A DNA stretch of 64,000 nucleotides from Phycisphaeraceae bacterium (GCA_963674705.1 OY771506.1:288001-352000), one strand, 5' to 3'; shown: positions 3,323-13,579, numbered from the stretch's first letter. Notes: generated by a model not told the origin, from the letters alone. Made by a program: numbers and translations.

Positions 3323-3407
3323 GGGAGACCCGCGCCGAGCGCGGCAGGATTTTGTATAGCCGCGGCCAGTGGCCGCGCGGATTTGTGGTTGTTGATGCGA
3401 AGAGCGC
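3323..3407 (+). repeat. Left copy of 85-bp imperfect direct repeat flanking the RAYT island (REP mosaic)
   Basis: Ungapped alignment to 8517-8601, 69/85 identical by hand count. Confidence 0.8.
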
Positions 3408-3412
3408 CAAAG

Positions 3413-3433
3413 AAACGGGTTCAGACCCCGTTT
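3413..3433. repeat. REP-like 21-bp palindrome, copy 1 (overlaps RAYT stop codon)
   Basis: AAACGGGTTCAGACCCCGTTT, one mismatch in the stem. Confidence 0.9.
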
Positions 3434-4136
3434 ATGGGGAAGCCTTCGGTCGCCCCGGTCTGCGGACGGTGGATTCGAGGCCGAAGGTTTGGATGGTGCA
3501 GTTTCGCCATTGGTCATTGCCGAATGGTGAACAGCGGTTGGCGCTGGTGCGCAGCGCGTTCAGTTCGTCTTCGCTGAGCGGCGTGTTGACGGTCCGTAGC
3601 CAGTTGCGGGGTCGGCCGCGTTGGGGCGATGTCAAACCACGGATAGGCCAATCGCTGAGTAGTTGCTGTTGATCAGTATCGCCAGACTTCCAACGCCATA
3701 ATCCTGACCATCTCCACGCTGCCGCCGACTCCACCAATCCCGCACGCATCGCGTTGCGTTCGACGTATCGGCAGACGGTCAGCAGATGTTCGTTGCTCTG
3801 GATCAGAAAGGATTTGAATCGCCCCTGGTACAACGCCCCGTCTCCCACGCTCTTATGTGCAACCCGGTAACGCCCGGCGTGGGTCGTGGTCAACCACTGC
3901 ATGAACGGGCCAAGCGCGCCGTCGGCCTCTGTCTTGAGGACCAGGTGCCAGTGGTTACCCATCATGCAGTAGGTCAGCAGCCGGACATCGCCGCCGCTGC
4001 GTTCGACCGCTTCGGCCAGGACCTTTTCGAACGCTTCGAAGTCGCCATCCTTGCGGAACATCCGCCACCGACCGGCCGTACGGTTCAGGACGTGGTAAGC
4101 ATAGCCGCCGACATCAACGCGTGGAGATCTTGGCAT
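3432..4136 (-). mobile_element. REP-associated tyrosine (Y1/HUH) transposase, RAYT-like, 234 aa
   Basis: YHVLNR, YCMMGNHWHLVL (HUH), LYQGRFKS, RYVERN (catalytic Tyr), WRWS; palindromes immediately up- and downstream. Confidence 0.92.
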
Positions 4137-4170
4137 GCGGGTAGTTTAGGTCCGATCGCCAAGCCCGCCC

Positions 4171-4191
4171 AAACGGGGTCTGACCCCGTTT
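4171..4191. repeat. REP-like 21-bp palindrome, copy 2 (upstream of RAYT)
   Basis: Perfect AAACGGGGTC-T-GACCCCGTTT. Confidence 0.95.
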
Positions 4192-4208
4192 CTTCTCCAA
4201 ATGCCTGA

Positions 4209-5213
4209 TTAATTATTATTGGGAGGGATAATTGATACAAAATATTCGCCATACATTGCTGAATATCCCTGGAGAACCTGACTTAAAACACCCTGTTTGG
4301 TTATATGATTACCATTCTTGTCTATCCACACCCAAGCCGTCCCCAAATCAACTAACGCACGATCATTGACGAATTTTGAGCCATGGTTGTATTTACATGA
4401 AATGTCAATTATACCTCGCTTATTGACATAACCAACTTTACCTTGCATGACTACAGCAGCAAGATCTTCTGAAAAGATATCCGCCTCTTCAAACTGCGGC
4501 TTGATGACTATGTTTGCATCCTTATCAATATAAGCCCACTTTCTTTCATCATTATCAACCAGAACTGGCGCGTACCCATCAGAAAATCCTTTTGCATCAT
4601 AATATTTTGGCTCGATCACGAGCTGAAAATGTTCATCTACGAAGCCCCATAAGTTAGAATCCTGCATTTTTACGGCTCGTAGTCCTTCACGCAAAACTCC
4701 ACTGTCTAGATACTTTACCACTAAATCACCATCGTGATTAAAAAACATCGCGCCTGATGGATTTTTAATACGTCCATAGCCACCATAATAATCATCAACG
4801 ATACCTTTATACATAGGTTTAACTATATACTGCCCATCACGGTCAATGTAAGCACACAATATACCGTCTTCAGATTTCACATATACCGCAGCTATACCTT
4901 CGTGAAATAAACGCACATCATAGAATGTGTTACTACCCACAAATTCACCGGATTCGTTAATTAAATGCCATTTATCTCCAAGCAAAACAAAACCGCGACC
5001 TTGGCTAAAATCAAGCACTTCATCGTACTTAGCAGGTACGACAACGTTTCCATTCTGATCCTTGAAGCCTCCACGTGTATCAGCTGTATAAAAGACCTTC
5101 CATTGATCTGACGGCCATGTTCTGGTATCAGAATACGAGATATCACCACCGTACGATAACTGGACACTAGCAATTAAACACACTGCTATTAATAAATAGT
5201 AAATTTTTATCAT
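4209..5213 (-). CDS. WG-repeat (WG_beta_rep) secreted protein, AT-rich
   Basis: Signal peptide; repeated WGFVD/WAYID/VGYVN...VIEPKY...FSDG units; 32-45% GC in spot counts. Confidence 0.88.
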   Translation of the reverse strand: MIKIYYLLIAVCLIASVQLSYGGDISYSDTRTWPSDQWKVFYTADTRGGFKDQNGNVVVPAKYDEVLDFSQGRGFVLLGDKWHLINESGEFVGSNTFYDVRLFHEGIAAVYVKSEDGILCAYIDRDGQYIVKPMYKGIVDDYYGGYGRIKNPSGAMFFNHDGDLVVKYLDSGVLREGLRAVKMQDSNLWGFVDEHFQLVIEPKYYDAKGFSDGYAPVLVDNDERKWAYIDKDANIVIKPQFEEADIFSEDLAAVVMQGKVGYVNKRGIIDISCKYNHGSKFVNDRALVDLGTAWVWIDKNGNHITKQGVLSQVLQGYSAMYGEYFVSIIPPNNN

Positions 5214-5252
5214 AACTATACTATCGGTAATGTGAACACTATAAATTTATGA

Positions 5253-5508
5253 TTATTTCGCTTTACGATTGTAGACCTGAAAAGCTACTGAATCATTATC
5301 TGAATCACCCCATACCCTCGCAGTAACATAATAACAACACCCATCGCCAGGATATGTAAAGCGACCTGTACCTGATATGTACATTTTACCAGAACCTTTG
5401 TGCCATTCCGCATGTCCCGTATCCCAATGTTCAGAACATACGACGGAAGGATCATAAGATGTTTTAGTCATATTACTTATATCTAAACTAACCTGGGATA
5501 CACCTCCG
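5253..5508 (-). pseudogene. Probable 3' fragment of an unknown AT-rich gene (possible polymorphic-toxin C-terminus)
   Basis: Frame of ORF 5253-5471 stays open upstream (GGVSQVSLDISN-MTKT) up to the REP junction at 5508/5509; ends 39 nt before the WG gene. Confidence 0.55.
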
Positions 5509-5514
5509 AGGAAG

Positions 5515-5535
5515 AAACGGGGTCTGACCCTGTTT
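5515..5535. repeat. REP-like 21-bp palindrome, copy 3
   Basis: AAACGGGGTCTGACCCTGTTT; 5509-5538 is identical to 8473-8502. Confidence 0.92.
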
Positions 5536-5734
5536 TTCCGAGCACCAGCCGGTGATCCAGATATTCTAAAGGATTATCCTTGAAACGCGCGACGGCCCAT
5601 GCGATACTGGTCATCCGTGACCTCCTGTGATGTTGTTGTTAGAACACCACCATCATCGCAGGAGGTTCATTATTGCGCCAGTGCAACGTAACGCGCGCTA
5701 TCAAAATAACTTACGGCTTAAGTTTGCGGCGTTC
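5536..5734 (-). mobile_element. Probable IS left-end remnant (IS4-like): terminal sequence, RBS hairpin and first ~25 transposase codons
   Basis: Minus strand begins GAACGCCGCAAACTTAAG; AGGAGG then ATG at 5614 gives MTSIAWAVARFKDNPLEYLDHRLV, which runs into a REP; hairpin 5620-5667 sequesters the RBS. Family call is from recalled resemblance only. Confidence 0.45.
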
Positions 5735-5750
5735 GGGTCTGACCCCGTTT
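5735..5750. repeat. REP-like palindrome, copy 4 (left arm truncated by the putative IS end)
   Basis: GGGTCTGACCCCGTTT followed by CTTCCT. Confidence 0.85.
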
Positions 5751-5756
5751 CTTCCT

Positions 5757-5820
5757 CGGCCGTACGGTTCAGGACGTGGTAAGCATAGCCGCCGACATCA
5801 ATGCGGGGAGGTCTTGGCAT
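5757..5820 (-). pseudogene. 5' fragment of a second, paralogous RAYT gene
   Basis: MPRPPRIDVGGYAYHVLNRTA; 5757-5875 closely matches 4073-4191, including upstream region and REP. Confidence 0.92.
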
Positions 5821-5849
5821 GCGGGTAGTTTAGAGCCGGTCGCCAAGCC

Positions 5850-5930
5850 CGTCAAAACGGGGTCTGACCCCGTTTCTCGTTCGTCAAAACGGGGTCTGAC
5901 CCCGTTTCTCGTTTGACCCCGTTTCTCGTT
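5850..5930 (+). repeat. Tandem REP duplication: 32-bp unit x2 plus 17-bp partial (REP copies 5, 6 and a half copy)
   Basis: CGTCAAAACGGGGTCTGACCCCGTTTCTCGTT at 5850-5881 and 5882-5913; TGACCCCGTTTCTCGTT at 5914-5930. Confidence 0.95.
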
Positions 5931-5931
5931 G

Positions 5932-6075
5932 AAAGAACATACAAGTATTGCAGTAGAGGCATTGGTTAGTGGAGGTGCTAGTCGTCAAGAAGCACGAGAA
6001 CTTGTTACTGAATCATTAATTAATCTTCGAAAGCAAGGTGTTACACAACCAACGAGTATTCCTTGGAATCCGTAA
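5932..6075 (+). pseudogene. Start-less 47-aa 3' gene tail resembling a polymorphic toxin C-terminus
   Basis: Hand translation KEHTSIAVEALVSGGASRQEARELVTESLINLRKQGVTQPTSIPWNP*; starts at the REP junction; AT-rich; not in the ORF track. Confidence 0.65.
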
Positions 6076-6101
6076 GAAGATCTACTTAAAGGAAATGCGA
6101 G

Positions 6102-6458
6102 ATGTCGCAAAATGCTTTAGATAAATTTGGGCAAATACTAATGCTCAAGGTTAGAGATGAAACCATCACAGACTGGGGGATGATCGTCTCAGGTAAGATG
6201 CTTGGTGAACATGCAGAGCGTATGCGCAAAATCTTTCAGAAGTTAAGTTCAGAGGAACTGCAGATAATTGATAAACTTGTTCCTGAAGTCGTAGACACGG
6301 TACTACATCATCTATTATGGACAATTGAACAGCAAGACGATCTTATCTTAAGTATCCGTGACCATAAATCAGTAATTGATTTGAAAAGAGTTTCTGATGG
6401 CTTGCCAGGAGAGTTGTATACTAATGAGGGATGGATAGCGAGATTCAGCAAACAATAA
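6102..6458 (+). CDS. Small AT-rich hypothetical protein, putative immunity protein
   Basis: 118 aa, AAGGA RBS, 26 nt after the toxin-like tail; LDKFG...VRDETI..W and SDGLPGELY..GWIARFS segments. Confidence 0.7.
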   Translation: MSQNALDKFGQILMLKVRDETITDWGMIVSGKMLGEHAERMRKIFQKLSSEELQIIDKLVPEVVDTVLHHLLWTIEQQDDLILSIRDHKSVIDLKRVSDGLPGELYTNEGWIARFSKQ

Positions 6459-6466
6459 TGGGAAGA

Positions 6467-6748
6467 GGCGGATTCAATTCCGAAGCGCAACACCGGGTAA
6501 GGCGTTAAGGACCTCGATCGGGGTGCGGTAGTCGAGGCACTTTCTTGGACGATTGTTAAGCATCTGCTGGACGCGTGCAAGCCGGGCGTTGCTTACGTGG
6601 CGGAAGTCGCTGCCTTTGGGGAAGAACTCGCAGAGCAGGACGTTGGTGTTTTCGTTGGCGCCGCGCTGCCAGGTCGCGTGGGGATTGGCGAAGTAGACCT
6701 TCATCTGCAGTGTGCGCTCGATCGAGGCGAAGTCGGCGAACTCCTTGC
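6467..6748 (-). mobile_element. IS30-family remnant: transposase C-terminus and right end
   Basis: KEFA...YFANPHATWQRGANENTN.LL.EFFPKGSDF...LNNRPRKCLDYRTP...GVALRN; terminal GGCGGATTCAA at 6467. Confidence 0.9.
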
Positions 6749-6749
6749 G

Positions 6750-6770
6750 AAAGTAGAATGTTCCCTTTTC
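6750..6770. repeat. Imperfect palindrome of a second REP-like family at the IS30 breakpoint
   Basis: AAAGTAGAATGTTCCCTTTTC; IS30 homology stops here. Confidence 0.55.
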
Positions 6771-7001
6771 CCTGTTTGCGTATGAGCGATAGGCGAGTTG
6801 TGGAAGGTGTGTGGTGTTTGTCCCGGGTTGTTCACTTAAAGCGCAGAACATGGCGTGACTGGTGGTCGCGGCTATACATGTTGCATACGAGCTGGATGCG
6901 CCCGCCTTACTTTTTTTAGTTTTTTTCGCGAACTTTGCCCACCCGGGCTCGTAGCATTGAAGATAGGGGGAGTTAAAAAAAGTAAATAAGGACATAAGCA
7001 T

Positions 7002-8228
7002 ATGACAAGCATATTACAGAATAACATGACAACGCCTCCTGCATCTGACAGCGAGCCGATGCTGGATTTGCCTATGGAACTTCAGCAGATGCTTTTGCAG
7101 GCGGTGGAACAGGATGCGAGCGATATTCACCTGGACAGCGGCTCGTCGAGGCCTGCGCTTCGTTTCCGGGTAGACAGCACTTTGTATGTCCAGCGTCGAT
7201 TGGAAAGTAAAGAAAGCGCGTTGCGTTTGATCAACCAGGTGCGGGTGTCGGCGGGCATGCATATTGATGCGATCTGGACGCCGGAGCAGGGGCAGTTCCG
7301 TTGGCGATGGAAAGACAAAGTGGTGGACATCCGGGTTACCGTTGCGCCGACGGTGCCGGACAACCTGGCGCTACACATGCGACTGCTTCGGCCGCCGCAT
7401 CAGTTGCACGGGCTGGATGAACTGGGCTTATCCGAAAGCAACCTGCAAACCGTACGTAACACTTTAAAACGGTCGGATGGTTTGATCCTGATCTCCGGGC
7501 CGACCGGCGGGGGCAAGACAACCACGCTTTACGCGATGCTCGATAGCGGCATGTTTGATGACAAGTTGATCGCAACGGTGGAAGACCCGGTCGAGTATGA
7601 ATTACCTGACGCCAGGCAGCTTGAGGTGGACCCGAAACATGAATTGACGATGGCGGAAGGCCTGCGGACGTTGTTGCGGATGGACCCGGATGTCCTGGCG
7701 GTCGGCGAGATACGCGATAGTGCGTCCGCGTCGACGACAGCGATGGCGGCGCTGGCGGGTCGGCTTGTGTTGGCGACGATCCACGCGCAGGATGCGGCGA
7801 GCACGATCACCGCTTTTCACCGCATGGGTGTGCCGTACTACGTCATCGGACACACGTTACGGCTTGTGATCAATCAACGCATGATGCGCAAGCTATGCAG
7901 GCATTGCGCCAACAGCAGGACACTCGAGAAACATGAAGAAGAGCTGTTTAAATCGTACGGCATTGAGGTTCCCCAAACCCTGTACGACCCGAACGGTTGT
8001 TCGCAGTGTCACGAGCGCGGATTCCACGGGCTCGTAGGTATCTTTGAAACGCTGGCGACCAACAATCAGTTCGGCTACTGGCTGTCGGAGGGTCGAACCC
8101 CTCCGGCGATCCAGCAGCGTATCGGCGAACAAGGCTGTCAACCGCTGATCGCCTGCGCGCTTGAAAAAGCAGCGAAGGGCCAGACCTCGATGTCGGAGGT
8201 CCACGCCCTGATGAATCAATATGATTGA
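7002..8228 (+). CDS. GspE/PulE/PilB-family secretion ATPase lacking N-terminal MshEN-type domains
   Basis: ASDIHL, Walker A GPTGGGKTT, TVEDPVE, LRMDPDVLAVGEIRD, TIHA, CRHC/CSQC zinc motif. Confidence 0.92.
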   Translation: MTSILQNNMTTPPASDSEPMLDLPMELQQMLLQAVEQDASDIHLDSGSSRPALRFRVDSTLYVQRRLESKESALRLINQVRVSAGMHIDAIWTPEQGQFRWRWKDKVVDIRVTVAPTVPDNLALHMRLLRPPHQLHGLDELGLSESNLQTVRNTLKRSDGLILISGPTGGGKTTTLYAMLDSGMFDDKLIATVEDPVEYELPDARQLEVDPKHELTMAEGLRTLLRMDPDVLAVGEIRDSASASTTAMAALAGRLVLATIHAQDAASTITAFHRMGVPYYVIGHTLRLVINQRMMRKLCRHCANSRTLEKHEEELFKSYGIEVPQTLYDPNGCSQCHERGFHGLVGIFETLATNNQFGYWLSEGRTPPAIQQRIGEQGCQPLIACALEKAAKGQTSMSEVHALMNQYD

Positions 8229-8248
8229 TGCCTGAAGATGTATCAGCG

Positions 8249-8326
8249 AAAAGGGGCGGGAGTCGTTTCTATGAAGCGGGTGGTCAGTTTCCGCTTTAAA
8301 CATAACGACTCCCGGCCCTCTTTTTT
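8249..8326 (+). terminator. Long hairpin with T-tail after the ATPase gene
   Basis: GGGGCGGGAGTCGTT...AACGACTCCCGGCCCTC-TTTTTT. Confidence 0.6.
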
Positions 8327-8434
8327 ATTGAAGGGATTGAGGCTTTGTTGAGTTTAAAAACGCGGACAGATCAATCCGCATGCCGGGTGCGGATGAGTGT
8401 GAATCCGCCGATTGTCAGCAGGATAAGTGATGCG

Positions 8435-8499
8435 AGGAAGAAACGGAGGAAGAAACGGAGAGGAAGAAACGGAGGAAGAAACGGGGTCTGACCCTGTTT
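8435..8499 (+). repeat. AGGAAGAAACGG x4 stutter running into REP palindrome copy 7 (8479-8499)
   Basis: 12-mers at 8435, 8447, 8461 and 8473; palindrome AAACGGGGTCTGACCCTGTTT. Confidence 0.93.
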
Positions 8500-8516
8500 T
8501 TCAGGTGGCTTGCTTA

Positions 8517-8622
8517 GGGAGAGCCGTGCCGAGCGCGGCGAGGTTTTATGCCGTCGCGGCTGGTGGCTGTGCGGGTTTGTGGTTGTTGATGTGAAGAGCG
8601 CGACCGATGGTCGCGGCTATAC
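8517..8622 (+). repeat. Right copy of the 85-bp direct repeat, continuing into a CGCGACCGATGGTCGCGGCTATACA arm
   Basis: Matches 3323-3407; the arm is also seen near 6855-6878 and 14646-14670. Confidence 0.8.
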
Positions 8623-8765
8623 AGGTGGGTGTGAGTTCATTGTAAATGATAAAAACCCGGCCGGGATGGTCGGGCATTAGACGTGAAGCAAGAGCGCTAA
8701 GCCGTAAGCGGCTTGACGAGTTGGTCGTGTTTGCTTTGTGATTCGTTACGTAATCAACCCGGCTC

Positions 8766-11642
8766 TCACCCAGGCCCCCCCGGAAGTCTCCCGGGGGGAG
8801 AGGGAGGAAAGATAACGGGGAGGGTTTGGTTGGTGCGGGCTTGTTGCAGGCGCAGGCGGGCGATGTCGATGGGTTGCCAGGTGCGCCAGACTTTGAAGGT
8901 TGGGGTGAAGCCGTAGGCGCCGTTGTTGACTTTGATGGCAACATTTTCCTTGAGGTACATGCGGTAGTCGGGGCGGATGGCTTCGAGTTGGTCGAGGACT
9001 TGTTCGGCGCGGTCGTATTGTTGTTGTGCGATCAGGTCATCGATGATTTGGGCGTAGGTGTTGAGCAGGAACTGCCAGCGGTGGTTGTTGGCTTCATGGG
9101 CGTAGTCGGGCTGGGTGGTGTTGTTGGTGATGTTATCGATTGTGGCGAGGGCTTGATCGAATTGGCCTAGTTTTGCCTGCAGTTTTGCGGTTTCGAGATC
9201 GAGATTTTCCAGGGCGAGTTTGTAGAGCATGTCGTCGTTACGGATGTACTCTGGCCAGGCGTCACGGGGCAGGTCGCGTTTTTTATTTATCGCTTCGATA
9301 GCCTGTTGATATTGGCCTTGCTTCTGGCATTGATTTATCTCATCGCTGAGCTTCTGGTATGGCGACTCTTGTTTTTCAAGTTGCTCGGCGAGGTCGGGGT
9401 ATTGTTTGAGCAGGTCGGCGAGCGAGTCGAACTTTGGCGATGGCAGGTCGATGTTTTGTTGCCAGTTGAAGCGGTCGCCGTTGTAGGACCTGGCTGATTC
9501 GGGGTCGTCGAGCGCGTTCATGATGACGACACTGTAATCCAGTTGGACTTGATCGGCGTCACCCTCGAGCAGGTAGGTGTGGACGCTGGGTTTTTCGCGG
9601 CCGCCGTTGTCGTGGGCGGTGTTGATGAGTTTCCATGTGCTTTGATCGGGGAGTTTGCCGGGAATCCAGTAGTTGGAGATGTTTCCGCCGCGGTCGGCGG
9701 GGGTTTGGACTGCGATGACGGTGTAGCCGTCGTTGCTGCGGGCGGCGGAGAGGACTTTCGGGCCGAAGCCACTATTCAGCGATTCGGTCGCACGCGGGAT
9801 CGCCATGGCGAGCGTGAGTTTGATGTTGAACTTCTTGTAGCTATCGACCAGGGAATCTTTTCTTTCGGTTTCTGTGAGGAACTTATCTTCCAGCGGTTTG
9901 AGTTGTTGATAGAGCGAATCGAATTCGCCGGTTCGGCCGGTGCGGTGCAGGTGGAGCAGGTATTGGCCGAGTTGATTCATCGTGTCCCAATCGCTGAACG
10001 GATCGGCGAGTGCTTGATCCAGGCGGTCGCGTTTGAATATCTTTGCGTACTCATCCCACAGATCGTAGTGGCGCAGGATCTGGTAGCCGTTAGTATCGAG
10101 CGGCTCGAGGCTTTTGAGTGTGTTTAGTTGTACCCATAGCGGGCTGCGGAGCAGGTGGTATGAGTAGAGCGCTTCGCGGCGTTGGTTCGGGTCGGCGAGC
10201 ACGGTCCAGCTTGGCCAGGTATGGGGGATGCCGGCTTGCGCAGCTTCGGGGATGGTGACTTGTTGCTTGCCGACAAGGACATCGGACATCATGCCGGAGT
10301 CGGCGTCGCGTTCGTAGACGGTGTAGCGCAGGTTGATGGTGCGCTGAGCTTCGCCTTGGACGAAAGGCGGAACAGCGATGTAAGTCATGCGGAGGGGCTC
10401 GTTGGGGACTTCATCCGCATCGTCGTAAAGATACATCTGCGGCGCGATGCGGTAGTAGGTGTTGCCCCAGTTGTCGAAGAGTTGTTCGCTGTAGCTCGGT
10501 GCGTACATACCGCCGTTGGGTTTGCGGTTATTGGCGTGTTTGGCGGTGATGAGAAGGTCGCCTGAGTCTGCTGATTCGATGGCGACAAACTCAGGCATCT
10601 GGATGCCGGACTCGGGGTCGTAGAGTTGTTCGAGGCCGACGGGTTTACCTTCGAGTTTTTCAGCGCCTGCCCGCATGATCTGACCGACCTGGTACAGGTT
10701 GCGTTGCTTGATGATTTCGTCGAAGTGGTCAGGGTCGAAGAACGATTCGGGCTGCGGGTCGGTGTAGTCGAACGTCACGAGCAGGAAGTCTTCGTAGTTC
10801 GGCTGATAGAGTTTCATGCGGATGGGCAAGCGGGATTCTTTCAGGACCCAGATGCGAGCCCACTGCATGGTGGCGTCGTGGGAATAATCGAAGACTTCTA
10901 TGCCGGCACTTGCGGCGACGGTCGCGCTCTTGACAGGTTTGCCTTGCGGGGGATCGCCACGGAACATCATGTGCAACAGCGCATCGAGCATGCCTTTCTC
11001 TTCAAGCGTATGGATGTACTGATCGGGGATGAGTTGGAAGCGCGTATCCTGTTGTTCGATCCATTTGCGCTCATCGGCGTCGAAGATGCGCGAGGTTTCC
11101 CCGTTGCGGAACTGGACCTGGTCGAATCCCTGGGCGCGGAAGTGGCCGGGCGATCGGTAGTACATGTCGATCTTGTACATCTTGGGCATATTGCCGTTGT
11201 GCGGTTCGTCGGCCCAGGCGGTGGCGTGGAAGTGATCGACATGATTCATGGCGGTGACGACGTCGGCCCAGGCGACGGAGGAGATAGCGCTGCCGTTATG
11301 CGTTTGCGTATCCGTGATCAGCAGGACAAACATCACGACAGCGGCGGCGACGGCGATCGGACCCCAGACGCGCCAGCGCGAGGGCGCGTAGTGTGGCTGC
11401 GATTGCGGATTCGCTTGCATGGATTCCTTGCGCACGGCCTTCATGATGTCGGCTTCGAGGTCGGCGGTTGAGGCGCTATCGTTTGAGTCGGTGACGGCGT
11501 TCATGGCTTGCGTGAGCGCGGCAAGCTCTTCGTGGGATTCGACGTCGCCGTTGAGCGTGGCCTGGAATTCGGCGCGCTGTTCGGGTGTCATTTCGCCGGT
11601 GAGGTAATCGATCATTTGTTGTTGGCGTTTTTTGTCGGTCAT
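8766..11642 (-). CDS. Large (958 aa) membrane-anchored putative anti-sigma/sensor protein
   Basis: ATGA overlap with the ECF gene; N-terminal IDYLTGEMTPEQRAEFQATL, single TM helix (PIAVAAAVVMFVLLI), AWADVV motif, helical TPR-like C-terminus. Confidence 0.75.
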   Translation of the reverse strand: MTDKKRQQQMIDYLTGEMTPEQRAEFQATLNGDVESHEELAALTQAMNAVTDSNDSASTADLEADIMKAVRKESMQANPQSQPHYAPSRWRVWGPIAVAAAVVMFVLLITDTQTHNGSAISSVAWADVVTAMNHVDHFHATAWADEPHNGNMPKMYKIDMYYRSPGHFRAQGFDQVQFRNGETSRIFDADERKWIEQQDTRFQLIPDQYIHTLEEKGMLDALLHMMFRGDPPQGKPVKSATVAASAGIEVFDYSHDATMQWARIWVLKESRLPIRMKLYQPNYEDFLLVTFDYTDPQPESFFDPDHFDEIIKQRNLYQVGQIMRAGAEKLEGKPVGLEQLYDPESGIQMPEFVAIESADSGDLLITAKHANNRKPNGGMYAPSYSEQLFDNWGNTYYRIAPQMYLYDDADEVPNEPLRMTYIAVPPFVQGEAQRTINLRYTVYERDADSGMMSDVLVGKQQVTIPEAAQAGIPHTWPSWTVLADPNQRREALYSYHLLRSPLWVQLNTLKSLEPLDTNGYQILRHYDLWDEYAKIFKRDRLDQALADPFSDWDTMNQLGQYLLHLHRTGRTGEFDSLYQQLKPLEDKFLTETERKDSLVDSYKKFNIKLTLAMAIPRATESLNSGFGPKVLSAARSNDGYTVIAVQTPADRGGNISNYWIPGKLPDQSTWKLINTAHDNGGREKPSVHTYLLEGDADQVQLDYSVVIMNALDDPESARSYNGDRFNWQQNIDLPSPKFDSLADLLKQYPDLAEQLEKQESPYQKLSDEINQCQKQGQYQQAIEAINKKRDLPRDAWPEYIRNDDMLYKLALENLDLETAKLQAKLGQFDQALATIDNITNNTTQPDYAHEANNHRWQFLLNTYAQIIDDLIAQQQYDRAEQVLDQLEAIRPDYRMYLKENVAIKVNNGAYGFTPTFKVWRTWQPIDIARLRLQQARTNQTLPVIFPPSPPGRLPGGPG

Positions 11643-12241
11643 GAGATTGCCTCCGGCTGAGATTCGGTGGCGAGTGTTTCGTGGATTTTGAGCAGGCCGT
11701 AGCGCATGCGTGAACGCGCGGTGGCGACGGGGCAACCGAGCACCTCGGCGATTTCGGCGAAGCTGAGTTGGCCGAACAGTTTCATCGAGACGACTTGTTG
11801 CTGCTGCTCGGGTAAGGCTGCGATGAGTTGTCGTGCGTAGAGTGCCTGATCGGCGCGCTCGGTCAGGCGGGCGGGGTCGGTGGATGTATCGGCGGTGTCT
11901 TTGGCGGATGTGTGTTCAGCCAGCTTTGGTCGGCGGGCGCGGTAGCGGTAGTGATCGATCAGCGTGTTGTTGGCGATCGTAAACAGCCAGGTTTTCAGTG
12001 AGGATGCGCCGGCGAAGTTGCCCGCACTGAGCGAGCGGAAGGCGCGGAGGAAGACGTCCTGCGACAGGTCGTCTGCGGTGTGCTTGTCTTCGACGCGGTG
12101 CGAAAGATAGTTCGACAAGGGCCCGGCGTAGCGTTTGACGAGGATGGCAAACGCTTCGACGTCCCCCGCTTCTACGCGTCGGACGACGGCCGGGTCTTGC
12201 TCGTAGTCTTGGGTCTGCATAGGCATGAGTCGGTCCGTCAA
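11639..12241 (-). CDS. ECF-family RNA polymerase sigma-70 factor (start uncertain)
   Basis: ADDLSQDVFLRAF, LKTWLFTIANN, LSFAEIAEVLGCPVATARSRMRY. Confidence 0.95.
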   Translation of the reverse strand: MTDRLMPMQTQDYEQDPAVVRRVEAGDVEAFAILVKRYAGPLSNYLSHRVEDKHTADDLSQDVFLRAFRSLSAGNFAGASSLKTWLFTIANNTLIDHYRYRARRPKLAEHTSAKDTADTSTDPARLTERADQALYARQLIAALPEQQQQVVSMKLFGQLSFAEIAEVLGCPVATARSRMRYGLLKIHETLATESQPEAIS

Positions 12242-12599: not shown

Positions 12600-13091
12600 G
12601 TGGCACAACCTGTACAGAACAACGAGCCGTCGGACCCGCTGAAGTCGCAACAGGACGGTGCGGCGCGTGTATGGATGAGCCAGCGTCAATGGATGGCGGT
12701 GTTGGAGAACACGGAGCGTCGGGCTCGGCAGGTGCGTGATGATGATCAGGCAAGTGATCTAGACTTGCGGCAGAGCCCGCGTTTACCTTTGCCGGGTGAT
12801 GCGAGGTGCATGATCCGGATGGATGAGAACAGCGACGATCACGGGACATATCTCGTGAAGCTTCGGGATATTTCCGCGACGGGATTGGGCTTCAACAGCC
12901 TGCAAAGGTTTACAGCCAGGACACGCTGCACGGTAGCGCTTCAGGACCCGCAGGGGCATGGCCTTGTGTGTGCGGCGCGGATCGTGTGGTGTAAGTCGGT
13001 TGATGATGAGCATCATGATGTGGGTATCCAGTTCGATCAACCGATTGATCCCACACGTTTTTCGGACGACACGCTCAACGTTCCCTGCTGA
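12600..13091 (+). CDS. PilZ domain protein
   Basis: RQSPR (RxxxR), DISATG (DxSxxG), ARIVWC, VGIQF. Confidence 0.88.
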   Translation: MAQPVQNNEPSDPLKSQQDGAARVWMSQRQWMAVLENTERRARQVRDDDQASDLDLRQSPRLPLPGDARCMIRMDENSDDHGTYLVKLRDISATGLGFNSLQRFTARTRCTVALQDPQGHGLVCAARIVWCKSVDDEHHDVGIQFDQPIDPTRFSDDTLNVPC

Positions 13092-13102
13092 TAGGTTGCG
13101 AT

Positions 13103-13579
13103 ATGACGAAGAAGCTTCGGCAGAGTCATCACGGCGGCGCGCTGAATACGCTCAGCCATTCGTTGACGATCGATCAGTGGCAACAGGCGCTGGAATCCGC
13201 GAAGCGGTACCGGTCGGAATTATCATTCTATGAAGACCGGCGCGACCCCAGCCAGACACGTCACGACACGGTACGACGTTGCCTGCTGCGTGTAGACCGG
13301 GGCGACGCTGCGCCGGGTCTGTACGTCGTGCGGTCGCGTGATATTTCCGACGGCGGGATCCGGATCGTACACGGCGGGCAGGTCAAGCCCCAATCCGTCT
13401 GCTGCATCATCATCGAGACGGAGAACGGCCAGAGCATCGCGGCGGGCGGCGAGGTGAGTTGGTGCAACCCGATCAAGGATGATTCGGTGGATGCGTACGA
13501 GCTGGGCATCCAGTTTTACGTGCCGATCAACGCGAGCTGCTTCGGGCCCGTCTCGGACAGCAATGAGAATGTTGCTTAA
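13103..13579 (+). CDS. PilZ domain protein (degenerate RxxxR)
   Basis: DISDGG, GEVSWC, LGIQF; paralogous to the upstream gene. Confidence 0.82.
   Translation: MTKKLRQSHHGGALNTLSHSLTIDQWQQALESAKRYRSELSFYEDRRDPSQTRHDTVRRCLLRVDRGDAAPGLYVVRSRDISDGGIRIVHGGQVKPQSVCCIIIETENGQSIAAGGEVSWCNPIKDDSVDAYELGIQFYVPINASCFGPVSDSNENVA

Follow-up and report, generated by a model that had tools for sequence, protein, structure and literature searches.

Can an HUH/Y1 nuclease gather foreign genes at the repeats of its own element, and would a locus built in this way amount to an integron-like system of acquired defence? The question is raised by positions 3407 to 8499 of a 64-kb stretch of DNA from a Phycisphaeraceae bacterium (the window, G000:288001-352000, part of a single 5.54-Mb contig; genome GC 0.57), where a nuclease gene with terminal repeats lies next to further repeat copies and unrelated blocks of DNA between them. 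Here G000 is the genome holding the window, G005 is a relative genome, and L-numbers are labels of individual compared loci. The locus has a clear anatomy of repeats and intervening cargo, its content differs between strains, its junctions lie at a near-constant distance from the repeat, and one of its blocks is identified as a toxin stub with a putative immunity gene. We consider it rather probable that the nuclease makes these junctions and that the capture of DNA by them is opportunistic. The initial annotation had gone further and proposed an integron-like array driven by a repetitive extragenic palindromic (REP)-associated tyrosine transposase (RAYT).

The nuclease gene is intact, as had been noted at the outset (Table 1), and the closest homolog loci belong to Phycisphaeraceae. 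In an alignment of 38 sequences (A1), H62 and H64 are invariant and Y124 is present in at least 90%; the motifs are NHWH, YQ, YVERNA and WSG, with WSS in homologs and ERNP in some of them. The predicted structure (pLDDT 91.7) has an extra C-terminal part with helices at 179-218, and its best fold match is TnpA-REP 4ER8 at a root-mean-square deviation of 2.5, the matches listed spanning only about 120-150 columns. No Pfam match at E 0.1 marks a C-terminal helix-turn-helix (HTH), the tail alone not having been searched by fold. A promoter scan was at chance level, with 5 found and 5.9 expected. The gene is flanked by inverted repeats fitting GGGGWSAS: the 5' copy reads GGGGTCAG, and the 3' copy has one mismatch but is intact in L015. 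Matching repeats occur at both ends in 34 of 113 homolog loci, many contigs being too short, and nearly all full-length homologs inspected have a short repeat of their own at one or both ends, many of them non-palindromic, with a shared G-rich core that fits or nearly fits GGGGWSAS.

These features recall a published class of elements; papers are cited here for the portions considered, with subscription papers mostly and supplements wholly outside that scope. TIRtrons consist of an HUH/Y1 gene, TIRYT, with terminal repeats that carry the motif GGGGWSAS (Di Nocera et al. 2013, PMC3733652). TIRYT has been equated with TnpA-Y1 subclass 2.1, or RAYT Group 1, for which the considered part of the study reports no REP-like sequences (Quentin et al. 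2018, PMC6006769). The same source describes subclass 2.1 as the largest REP-like TnpA-Y1 subclass (14.9% of species), with a length near 238 aa, a C-terminal extension, the motifs NH[YFV]H, W[EQ]/FQ, Y..[LN]NP and SS, and a C-terminal HTH-like domain (Bac_DnaA_C, HTH_23, HTH_28) in subgroup 2.1.2. By the sequence features tested, the element is of the TIRtron type, and its nuclease is probably a member of TnpA-Y1 subclass 2.1. The assignment to REP and RAYT in the strict sense fails: the tetranucleotide GTAG/GTGG expected at the hairpin foot is absent from the flanks of all copies, the curated RAYT model NF047646 scores 51.4 bits and stays below its cut-off of 80, and the fixed junction ends start with A, C or G, which would not fit cleavage between C and T or between C and A.

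The 21-mer repeat is present in six full copies (3413, with one mismatch, 4171, 5515, 5855, 5887 and 8479), against 0 in 100 shuffles, and in partial copies at 5735 and 5914, so that all eight positions listed in the initial annotation stand. Its further remark that no copy was noticed elsewhere in the 64 kb is correct for the repeat core, none being found in the rest of the window. Genome-wide, the repeat is not restricted to this locus: at one mismatch or fewer, this repeat (family A) has 24 sites in G000 and 23 in G005, and it is found in 6 of 11 genomes of the genus. Family A is a small genomic family extending beyond the window locus, and the window also carries repeats of two paralogous families, D (6750-6770) and E (8249-8326). 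Mis-assembly, which had been named as a possible refutation, is unlikely, as Logan contigs of run X1 span the junctions of the 4171 and 5887 repeats with their cargo at zero differences (pieces 4097-5537 and 5884-6496); X1 is possibly the source sample, and none of its pieces covers the whole region.

Several observations on repeats lie beside this account. A second, unrelated palindromic family surrounds the locus (window 3323-3407, 6853-6881 and 8517-8626), has 42 exact-pattern copies in G000 and served as a control. The identical 21-mer occurs in many solitary copies in metagenome-assembled genomes (MAGs) of high-GC soil Actinomycetes (L100-L178), where the flanks are not low in GC. In L083 (3143-6007) and at G000 3681071, repeats cluster within a long open frame, which in the relative measures 954 aa between stop codons; they seem to keep the frame, and their number is unequal between the two genomes.

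The junctions themselves follow a regular spacing. Partial tandem copies accompany 14 of 61 family-A arms in G000, representing 12 events, two of which are visible from both arms. The shared outer flank ends 9-12 nucleotides (nt) from the core in all 14, mostly 10-11 nt when microhomology is allowed for, while the opposite end lies anywhere between 1 and 23 nt inside the repeat. Three other repeat families, screened with four patterns (the second coincided in part with family A and contributed new rows for families B and C alone), gave 0 such copies at 255 arms, and random positions gave 22 in 20000. The relative genome adds 8 partial-copy rows in which the shared flank stops at 10-13. Nine junctions have an identifiable donor, with the first donor base at +10 (five), +11 (one), +12 (two) and +8 (one); these were picked by eye after dropping orthologous-site and other-repeat matches and two ambiguous junctions (+9, +14). 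The 113 homolog loci yield 19 such junction rows, which, three rows of a single array (L024) apart, fall at 7-14, one interval reaching 22. The fixed ends have no common dinucleotide. Read from 5' to 3', a fixed, repeat-bearing 5' end is joined to a variable 3' end, and this polarity matches HUH chemistry, in which a 5'-phosphotyrosine end is resolved by an attacking 3'-OH. The near-fixed distance from the repeat thus implicates the nuclease, and the non-palindromic nature of many sister repeats argues against plain slippage at hairpins. A CRISPR-like direct duplication of the whole site at every insertion was considered and rejected: it fits L153 and, in part, L081 and L086, and does not fit 4171 and 5515, whose flanks are inverted look-alikes.

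What lies beyond the junctions differs between strains, as comparison at three sites makes clear. L015, whose flanks are mostly 90-96% identical, comes from a genome of the same genus and shares the upstream gene, a 94% identical transposase, the 5' repeat and the downstream pulE gene with the window, and homology breaks off within the 10-nt flank of the 5' repeat. In place of the window's cargo, L015 has an orphan RHS core (TIGR03696, E 1e-15) with a C-terminus and a 156-aa immunity-like gene starting at a repeat of a sister family. At the second site, a broken copy of the transposase accompanies a pentapeptide gene in G000 (L001), and the relative (L086) has RraB-like and SMI1/KNR4 genes between repeats. 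Variable cargo at a constant junction, the outcome that a comparison of strains had been meant to look for, is thus found twice. At the third site, a 920-bp AT-rich block next to a repeat is 99.9% identical in two genomes with flanks at about 95%, which points to recent exchange.

These loci hold other details of interest. The transposase 3' end is duplicated in L015 (8705-8800) between two repeats, one of each sequence type found at the two G000 loci. The transposase copy in L001 (3890-6390) is a sister at 93% nucleotide identity, broken by an 8-nt duplication near its start, and is accompanied by the pentapeptide-repeat gene and by a repeat-bounded copy of window 8500-8960. A second repeat cluster behind groEL (L002 2400-5900, orthologue L094) has repeats of several families around small genes, adjoins a DUF5343 gene and a DpnII/MboI-type nuclease gene, and is filled differently in the relative.

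The blocks between the repeats are of diverse origin. The blocks 4198-5508 and 5931-6466 have a GC content of 0.39 against 0.57 for the genome, and each begins in an open frame without an evident gene start (the frame at 5253-5507 has one internal ATG) and continues with an intact gene, just as had been described. In the second of them, the RHS stub (5931-6075) matches the terminal part of an RHS frame in L223 (Archangium), at least 1311 aa long, at 65% identity, with 55% for L222 and 53% for L221, and a homolog of the 118-aa gene stands behind the same RHS toxin tip in three of four homolog loci (L221-L223 carry the pair). The stub has no TIGR03696 match, and as a query it gave no further copy of itself in G000 or G005. 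On these sequence comparisons, 5931-6458 is an RHS toxin C-terminal stub with a putative immunity gene, in the gene order of an orphan Rhs-CT/immunity module. G000 also has one full-length RHS gene (2051116-2062716, a 3866-aa frame), a possible acceptor for orphan modules.

The toxin/immunity order that had been suggested for both AT-rich blocks is accordingly supported for 5931-6458 and not for cargo 1. The stub at 5253-5507 has three weak matches (E 1e-8 to 1e-3), all of them multi-stretch proteins, no atlas match at or above 0.9 and no match in 143 other genomes of the family with this query, and the two loci inspected (L329, L331) of three with WG-repeat homologs lack a toxin context; a toxin/immunity pair is therefore not supported for cargo 1. 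Of the four unrelated blocks said to be bounded by palindromes, 4198-5508 is foreign and 5931-6458 holds the toxin stub and putative immunity gene, but 5539-5737 is an IS4-family remnant and 5757-5877 is the element's own DNA. Nor is 5931-8434 a single block: it comprises the toxin stub and immunity-like gene, an IS30-family remnant, a family-D repeat and the resident pulE. The insertion sequence (IS) of the IS4 family is present in full at L003 (NF033592 above the cut-off); in L094 it has entered the centre of the palindrome and duplicated 5 bp, and the half copy at 5735 is therefore an IS target site. More widely, this element sits in the centre of family-A repeats and also adjoins family B and C repeats, a case of an IS targeting TIRtron ends (L094 6019-7534; L228 6362; L081 6415; L003 2680-4175; window 5539-5742).

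The mechanism that these scars suggest starts from an element of the TIRtron type. Its HUH/Y1 nuclease has terminal repeats of its own, which number about 24 in the genome and stand alongside the repeats of several paralogous enzymes. The nuclease would bind the repeat and make a single-strand nick some 10 nt to the 5' side of the GGGGTC core, regardless of the bases at the cut. Its tyrosine would hold the repeat-side 5' end until any attacking 3'-OH frees the enzyme. Attack by the nascent strand, paused in the same repeat, would give partial tandem copies, joining to chromosomal DNA would give copied gene fragments, and joining to incoming foreign DNA would give AT-rich blocks with the repeat 10 nt from one or both ends. 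Capture would be unselective and the pieces ragged at their ends, and selection would keep those in which a small gene is complete, in many cases an immunity gene preceded by a toxin stub; with useful pieces kept, repeat clusters would turn into slots whose content is exchanged and varies from strain to strain. Elements of the IS4 and IS30 families would later insert into the repeat clusters and decay there. We infer the role of the nuclease in making the junctions, its chemistry and the selection for immunity from sequence. If the enzyme does join a repeat end to arbitrary DNA with a 3'-OH, start-less toxin stubs with intact immunity genes would be explained without an integrase or homology.

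Several facts weigh against this explanation. The junction between the 5515 repeat and IS4 lies at +7, and the family-D repeat adjoins IS30 on its inner side; neither fits the rule. The ends of foreign cargo were placed from recurring flanks, as donors are lacking. Most repeats are solitary, with a low-GC outer flank at 12 of 54 family-A arms in G000 and a GC drop at 1 of 74 loci from other genomes, many of which are soil Actinomycetes MAGs. Low-GC islands touch a repeat in 6 of 64 cases in G000, more than at random (mean 0.71, maximum 4 in 1000) and in itself a point in favour, yet 58 of 64 have no repeat nearby and the random control leaves intergenic bias in. Immunity domains turned up at 2 of the 33 homolog loci from genomes (114 frames) and at 0 of the 80 from metagenomes (109 frames), the frames having been chosen by a crude longest-ORF (open reading frame) rule that missed some genes; the immunity cargo that a survey around homologs had been expected to reveal is therefore not general. 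Examples of defence cargo also rest partly on hand-picked proteins (sets of 30 and 16).

The alternative with most in its favour, which we nevertheless think unlikely, makes the repeats secondary. Foreign toxin/immunity DNA would have come by homologous recombination between RHS genes or with IS elements, and the transposase would spread repeats into tolerant accessory DNA and trim it by deletion, leaving the same 10-nt scars. That repeats can arrive second is clear from a 33-bp repeat unit, the repeat with flanks of about 10 nt, inserted alone at an empty site (L093 against G000), a further point against capture at the junctions. IS4 and IS30 occupy the locus in both genomes, full-length RHS genes exist (one core in G000, seven in G005), the repeat forms part of a repeated RHS module in L112/L113, and the majority of repeats lie in ordinary DNA. 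At the two orthologous sites, however, the different cargo of each strain starts right at the repeat flank with no shared island beneath, the window stub has no RHS core on which recombination could act, and single small genes stand between repeats at unlinked sites (L081, L086, L153, L313 and L314).

A dedicated integron-like system of acquired immunity, in which the enzyme is kept in order to gather immunity cassettes in an ordered array, is an improbable reading. It draws on the toxin stub with its intact immunity-like gene, whose cognate toxin was not found in the genome with the query used, on similar cargo at L015, L017, L066, L086, L088, L099, L135, L315 and L325, on the regular direct-repeat array of L153 and on the near-identical 920-bp block common to two genomes. 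The cargo nonetheless includes a fragment of the enzyme's own gene, IS fragments and chromosomal gene ends, its orientation is mixed, no joint skipping exactly one cargo block was seen in X1 (contigs only), and there is no immunity enrichment among 80 distant loci. The integron-like array of the initial annotation is accordingly not supported, as no ordered, polar, excisable cassette system and no integron features were found. An assembly artefact or replication slippage at hairpins, which the repeat-rich region and the lack of an X1 contig spanning it might suggest, is largely refuted and most improbable, given that X1 unitigs cross the junctions without differences, that an independent genome (L015) has the same architecture, that control hairpins gave 0 of 255 for partial copies and that the fixed offset recurs at non-palindromic sister repeats.

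Under opportunistic capture by the nuclease, defence genes would be one class of cargo among others. Toxin stubs, immunity genes or toxin-antitoxin (TA) pairs adjoin repeats in L017, L066, L086, L088, L099, L112, L135, L143, L315 and L325; they include a WHH nuclease stub (L088), a deaminase stub with SMI1 (L017), Imm35 (L066) and ParE/Phd between repeats (L143), to which SUKH-3 in G000 may be added. L153, a contig with a SPAdes-type name, has a regular three-module direct-repeat array, and the small single genes of L081, L086, L153, L313 and L314 are bracketed by repeats on both sides. From these sequences, the enzyme does not seem to choose what it captures, and in some lineages of the Planctomycetes-Verrucomicrobia-Chlamydiae (PVC) group defence genes often survive among the pieces. 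More broadly, and only as a tentative suggestion that we think clearly less likely than not, TIRYT (subclass 2.1/Group 1) nucleases of Planctomycetota and allied lineages may be domesticated DNA-capture enzymes that join repeat ends measured by a 10-nt ruler to the 3' ends of incoming DNA, for instance DNA set free by killed competitors, and so build repeat-cargo-repeat immunity/TA arrays; this estimate covers the dedicated reading together with the part of the favoured explanation in which the capture of foreign defence genes is the selected function. If true, it would constitute an HUH-based route to acquired interbacterial defence, unlike integrons and XerC/D-associated polyimmunity loci.

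Table 1. Features of the nuclease locus in window coordinates.
Position	Strand	Feature	Remarks
3413..3433	.	3' terminal repeat, family A, one mismatch	overlaps transposase stop codon; orthologous L015 copy intact
3432..4136	-	HUH/Y1 nuclease (TIRYT-type), intact, 234 aa	PF01797 E 6.6e-12; H62-W-H64, Y124; C-terminal helical extension, GRP tail
4171..4197	.	5' terminal repeat with 10-nt outer flank	9-bp hairpin, z -3.3; homology to L015 and L001 ends inside flank
4198..5508	-	AT-rich cargo 1, GC 0.39	both ends 10 nt from repeat core, inferred from recurring flanks; not in relative
4209..5213	-	WG-repeat protein gene, intact, 334 aa	PF14903; hydrophobic N-terminus; best homolog 43%
5253..5507	-	84-codon frame opening at repeat flank, probably gene stub	no convincing homolog
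5509..5538	.	repeat with flanks	5508-5538 matches 8472-8502 and L001 copy exactly
5539..5737	-	IS4-family remnant, left end and first codons	targets repeats; junction at +7, exception to 10-nt rule
5738..5756	.	half repeat (IS4 target) with 10-nt flank	
5757..5877	-	copy of transposase gene 5' end and promoter side with repeat	93%; joined 10 nt from half repeat
5855..5930	.	tandem repeats, two full and one partial	each unit stops 10 nt past core
5931..6075	+	RHS toxin C-terminal domain, final 46 codons	lacks RHS core and start codon
6102..6458	+	putative immunity gene (DUF6547-like family), intact, 118 aa	73 matches including self; atlas lead
6467..6748	-	IS30-family remnant	full copy at same locus in relative
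6750..6770	-	terminal repeat of sister TIRYT family (family D)	
7002..8228	+	PulE/GspE-type ATPase gene, resident, not cargo	PF00437; syntenic in G005 at 84%
8249..8326	.	two inverted repeats of another sister family (family E)	
8434..8502	.	repeat with three partial copies of own outer flank ahead	not in relative

The DNA behind the last repeat of Table 1 (to about 8960) is copied, bounded by repeats, to L001. The window also holds a 989-aa gene behind what is presumably an extracytoplasmic function (ECF) sigma-like gene (8766-12241) and what we take to be two short PilZ-like ORFs (12600-13579).

The locus can be placed among known systems by its likenesses and differences. It resembles TIRtrons in having an HUH/Y1 gene between GGGGWSAS inverted repeats, a moderate genome-wide repeat family, a protein of about 230-240 aa and paralogs each with its own repeat. 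It adds the 10-nt junction rule and strain-variable toxin/immunity cargo to published accounts that, in the parts considered, give no substrate, cut site, junction rule or cargo. In the literature within our scope, no report connects the repeats of TIRYT or subclass 2.1 with the capture of toxin/immunity genes or with junctions at a constant offset, and no substrate or function is known for subclass 2.1. To judge from that literature, the 10-nt junction spacing and the toxin/immunity cargo at terminal inverted repeats appear to be new here; TIRtron anatomy is already known. The scars would predict the substrate and cut position of a subclass 2.1 enzyme to within a base or two, and DNA joining that is defined by position and tolerant of sequence may serve as a useful tool.

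REPtrons, represented by E. coli TnpA-REP with its REPs and bacterial interspersed mosaic elements (BIMEs), provide the closest solved fold. In the sections considered, TnpA-REP passes its 5'-phosphotyrosine end to the 3'-OH of an added oligonucleotide (PMC8266576), tandem amplification has been proposed for the E. coli enzyme, and BIME recombination may sequester flanking genes or fragments, as at codA-cynR (Ton-Hoang 2012, PMC3333891). Cutting and rejoining by an HUH enzyme, tandem repeat amplification and the sequestering of genes would thus be shared. The window element differs from REPtrons in lacking the GTAG foot, in fixed ends that do not follow cleavage between C and T, in scoring below the NF047646 cut-off, in having about 24 copies and not hundreds, and in cargo that is foreign and not only neighbouring DNA. 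A TnpA-REP of subclass 2.1 also adjoins prochlorosin genes, for which diversifying recombination was proposed; in the portion considered, the authors later note that the evidence does not speak strongly either for causality or against it (Laurenceau et al., bioRxiv 10.1101/2020.03.09.984088). The subclass, probable for the window enzyme, and the proximity to a diversifying small-gene family are common to both cases; the prochlorosin case, as far as the portion considered goes, is one of association only, with no repeat or junction rule.

Orphan Rhs-CT/immunity modules and polyimmunity loci, in the descriptions considered, likewise have a toxin stub followed by an intact immunity gene and a content that varies between strains. 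The window stub differs from the orphan modules in having no RHS core, which the L015 cargo has. Beside polyimmunity loci, XerC/D recombinases are named in the part of the source considered (Zhang et al. 2012, PMC3482391), whereas an HUH nuclease stands here.

An integron combines a single-strand-processing enzyme, the tyrosine recombinase IntI, with attI, the promoter Pc and attC cassettes, variable accessory genes separated by repeats. The window locus is alike in that an enzyme which processes single strands stands beside accessory genes of variable content with repeats between them. It departs from the integron in its ragged cargo ends, mixed orientation and repeats that belong to the host element and not to the cassette, and ORF and profile scans of 3407-8499 found no ORF of an IntI-type tyrosine recombinase, attC models not having been run. 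The locus works partly like an integron or a polyimmunity locus and is a member of neither.

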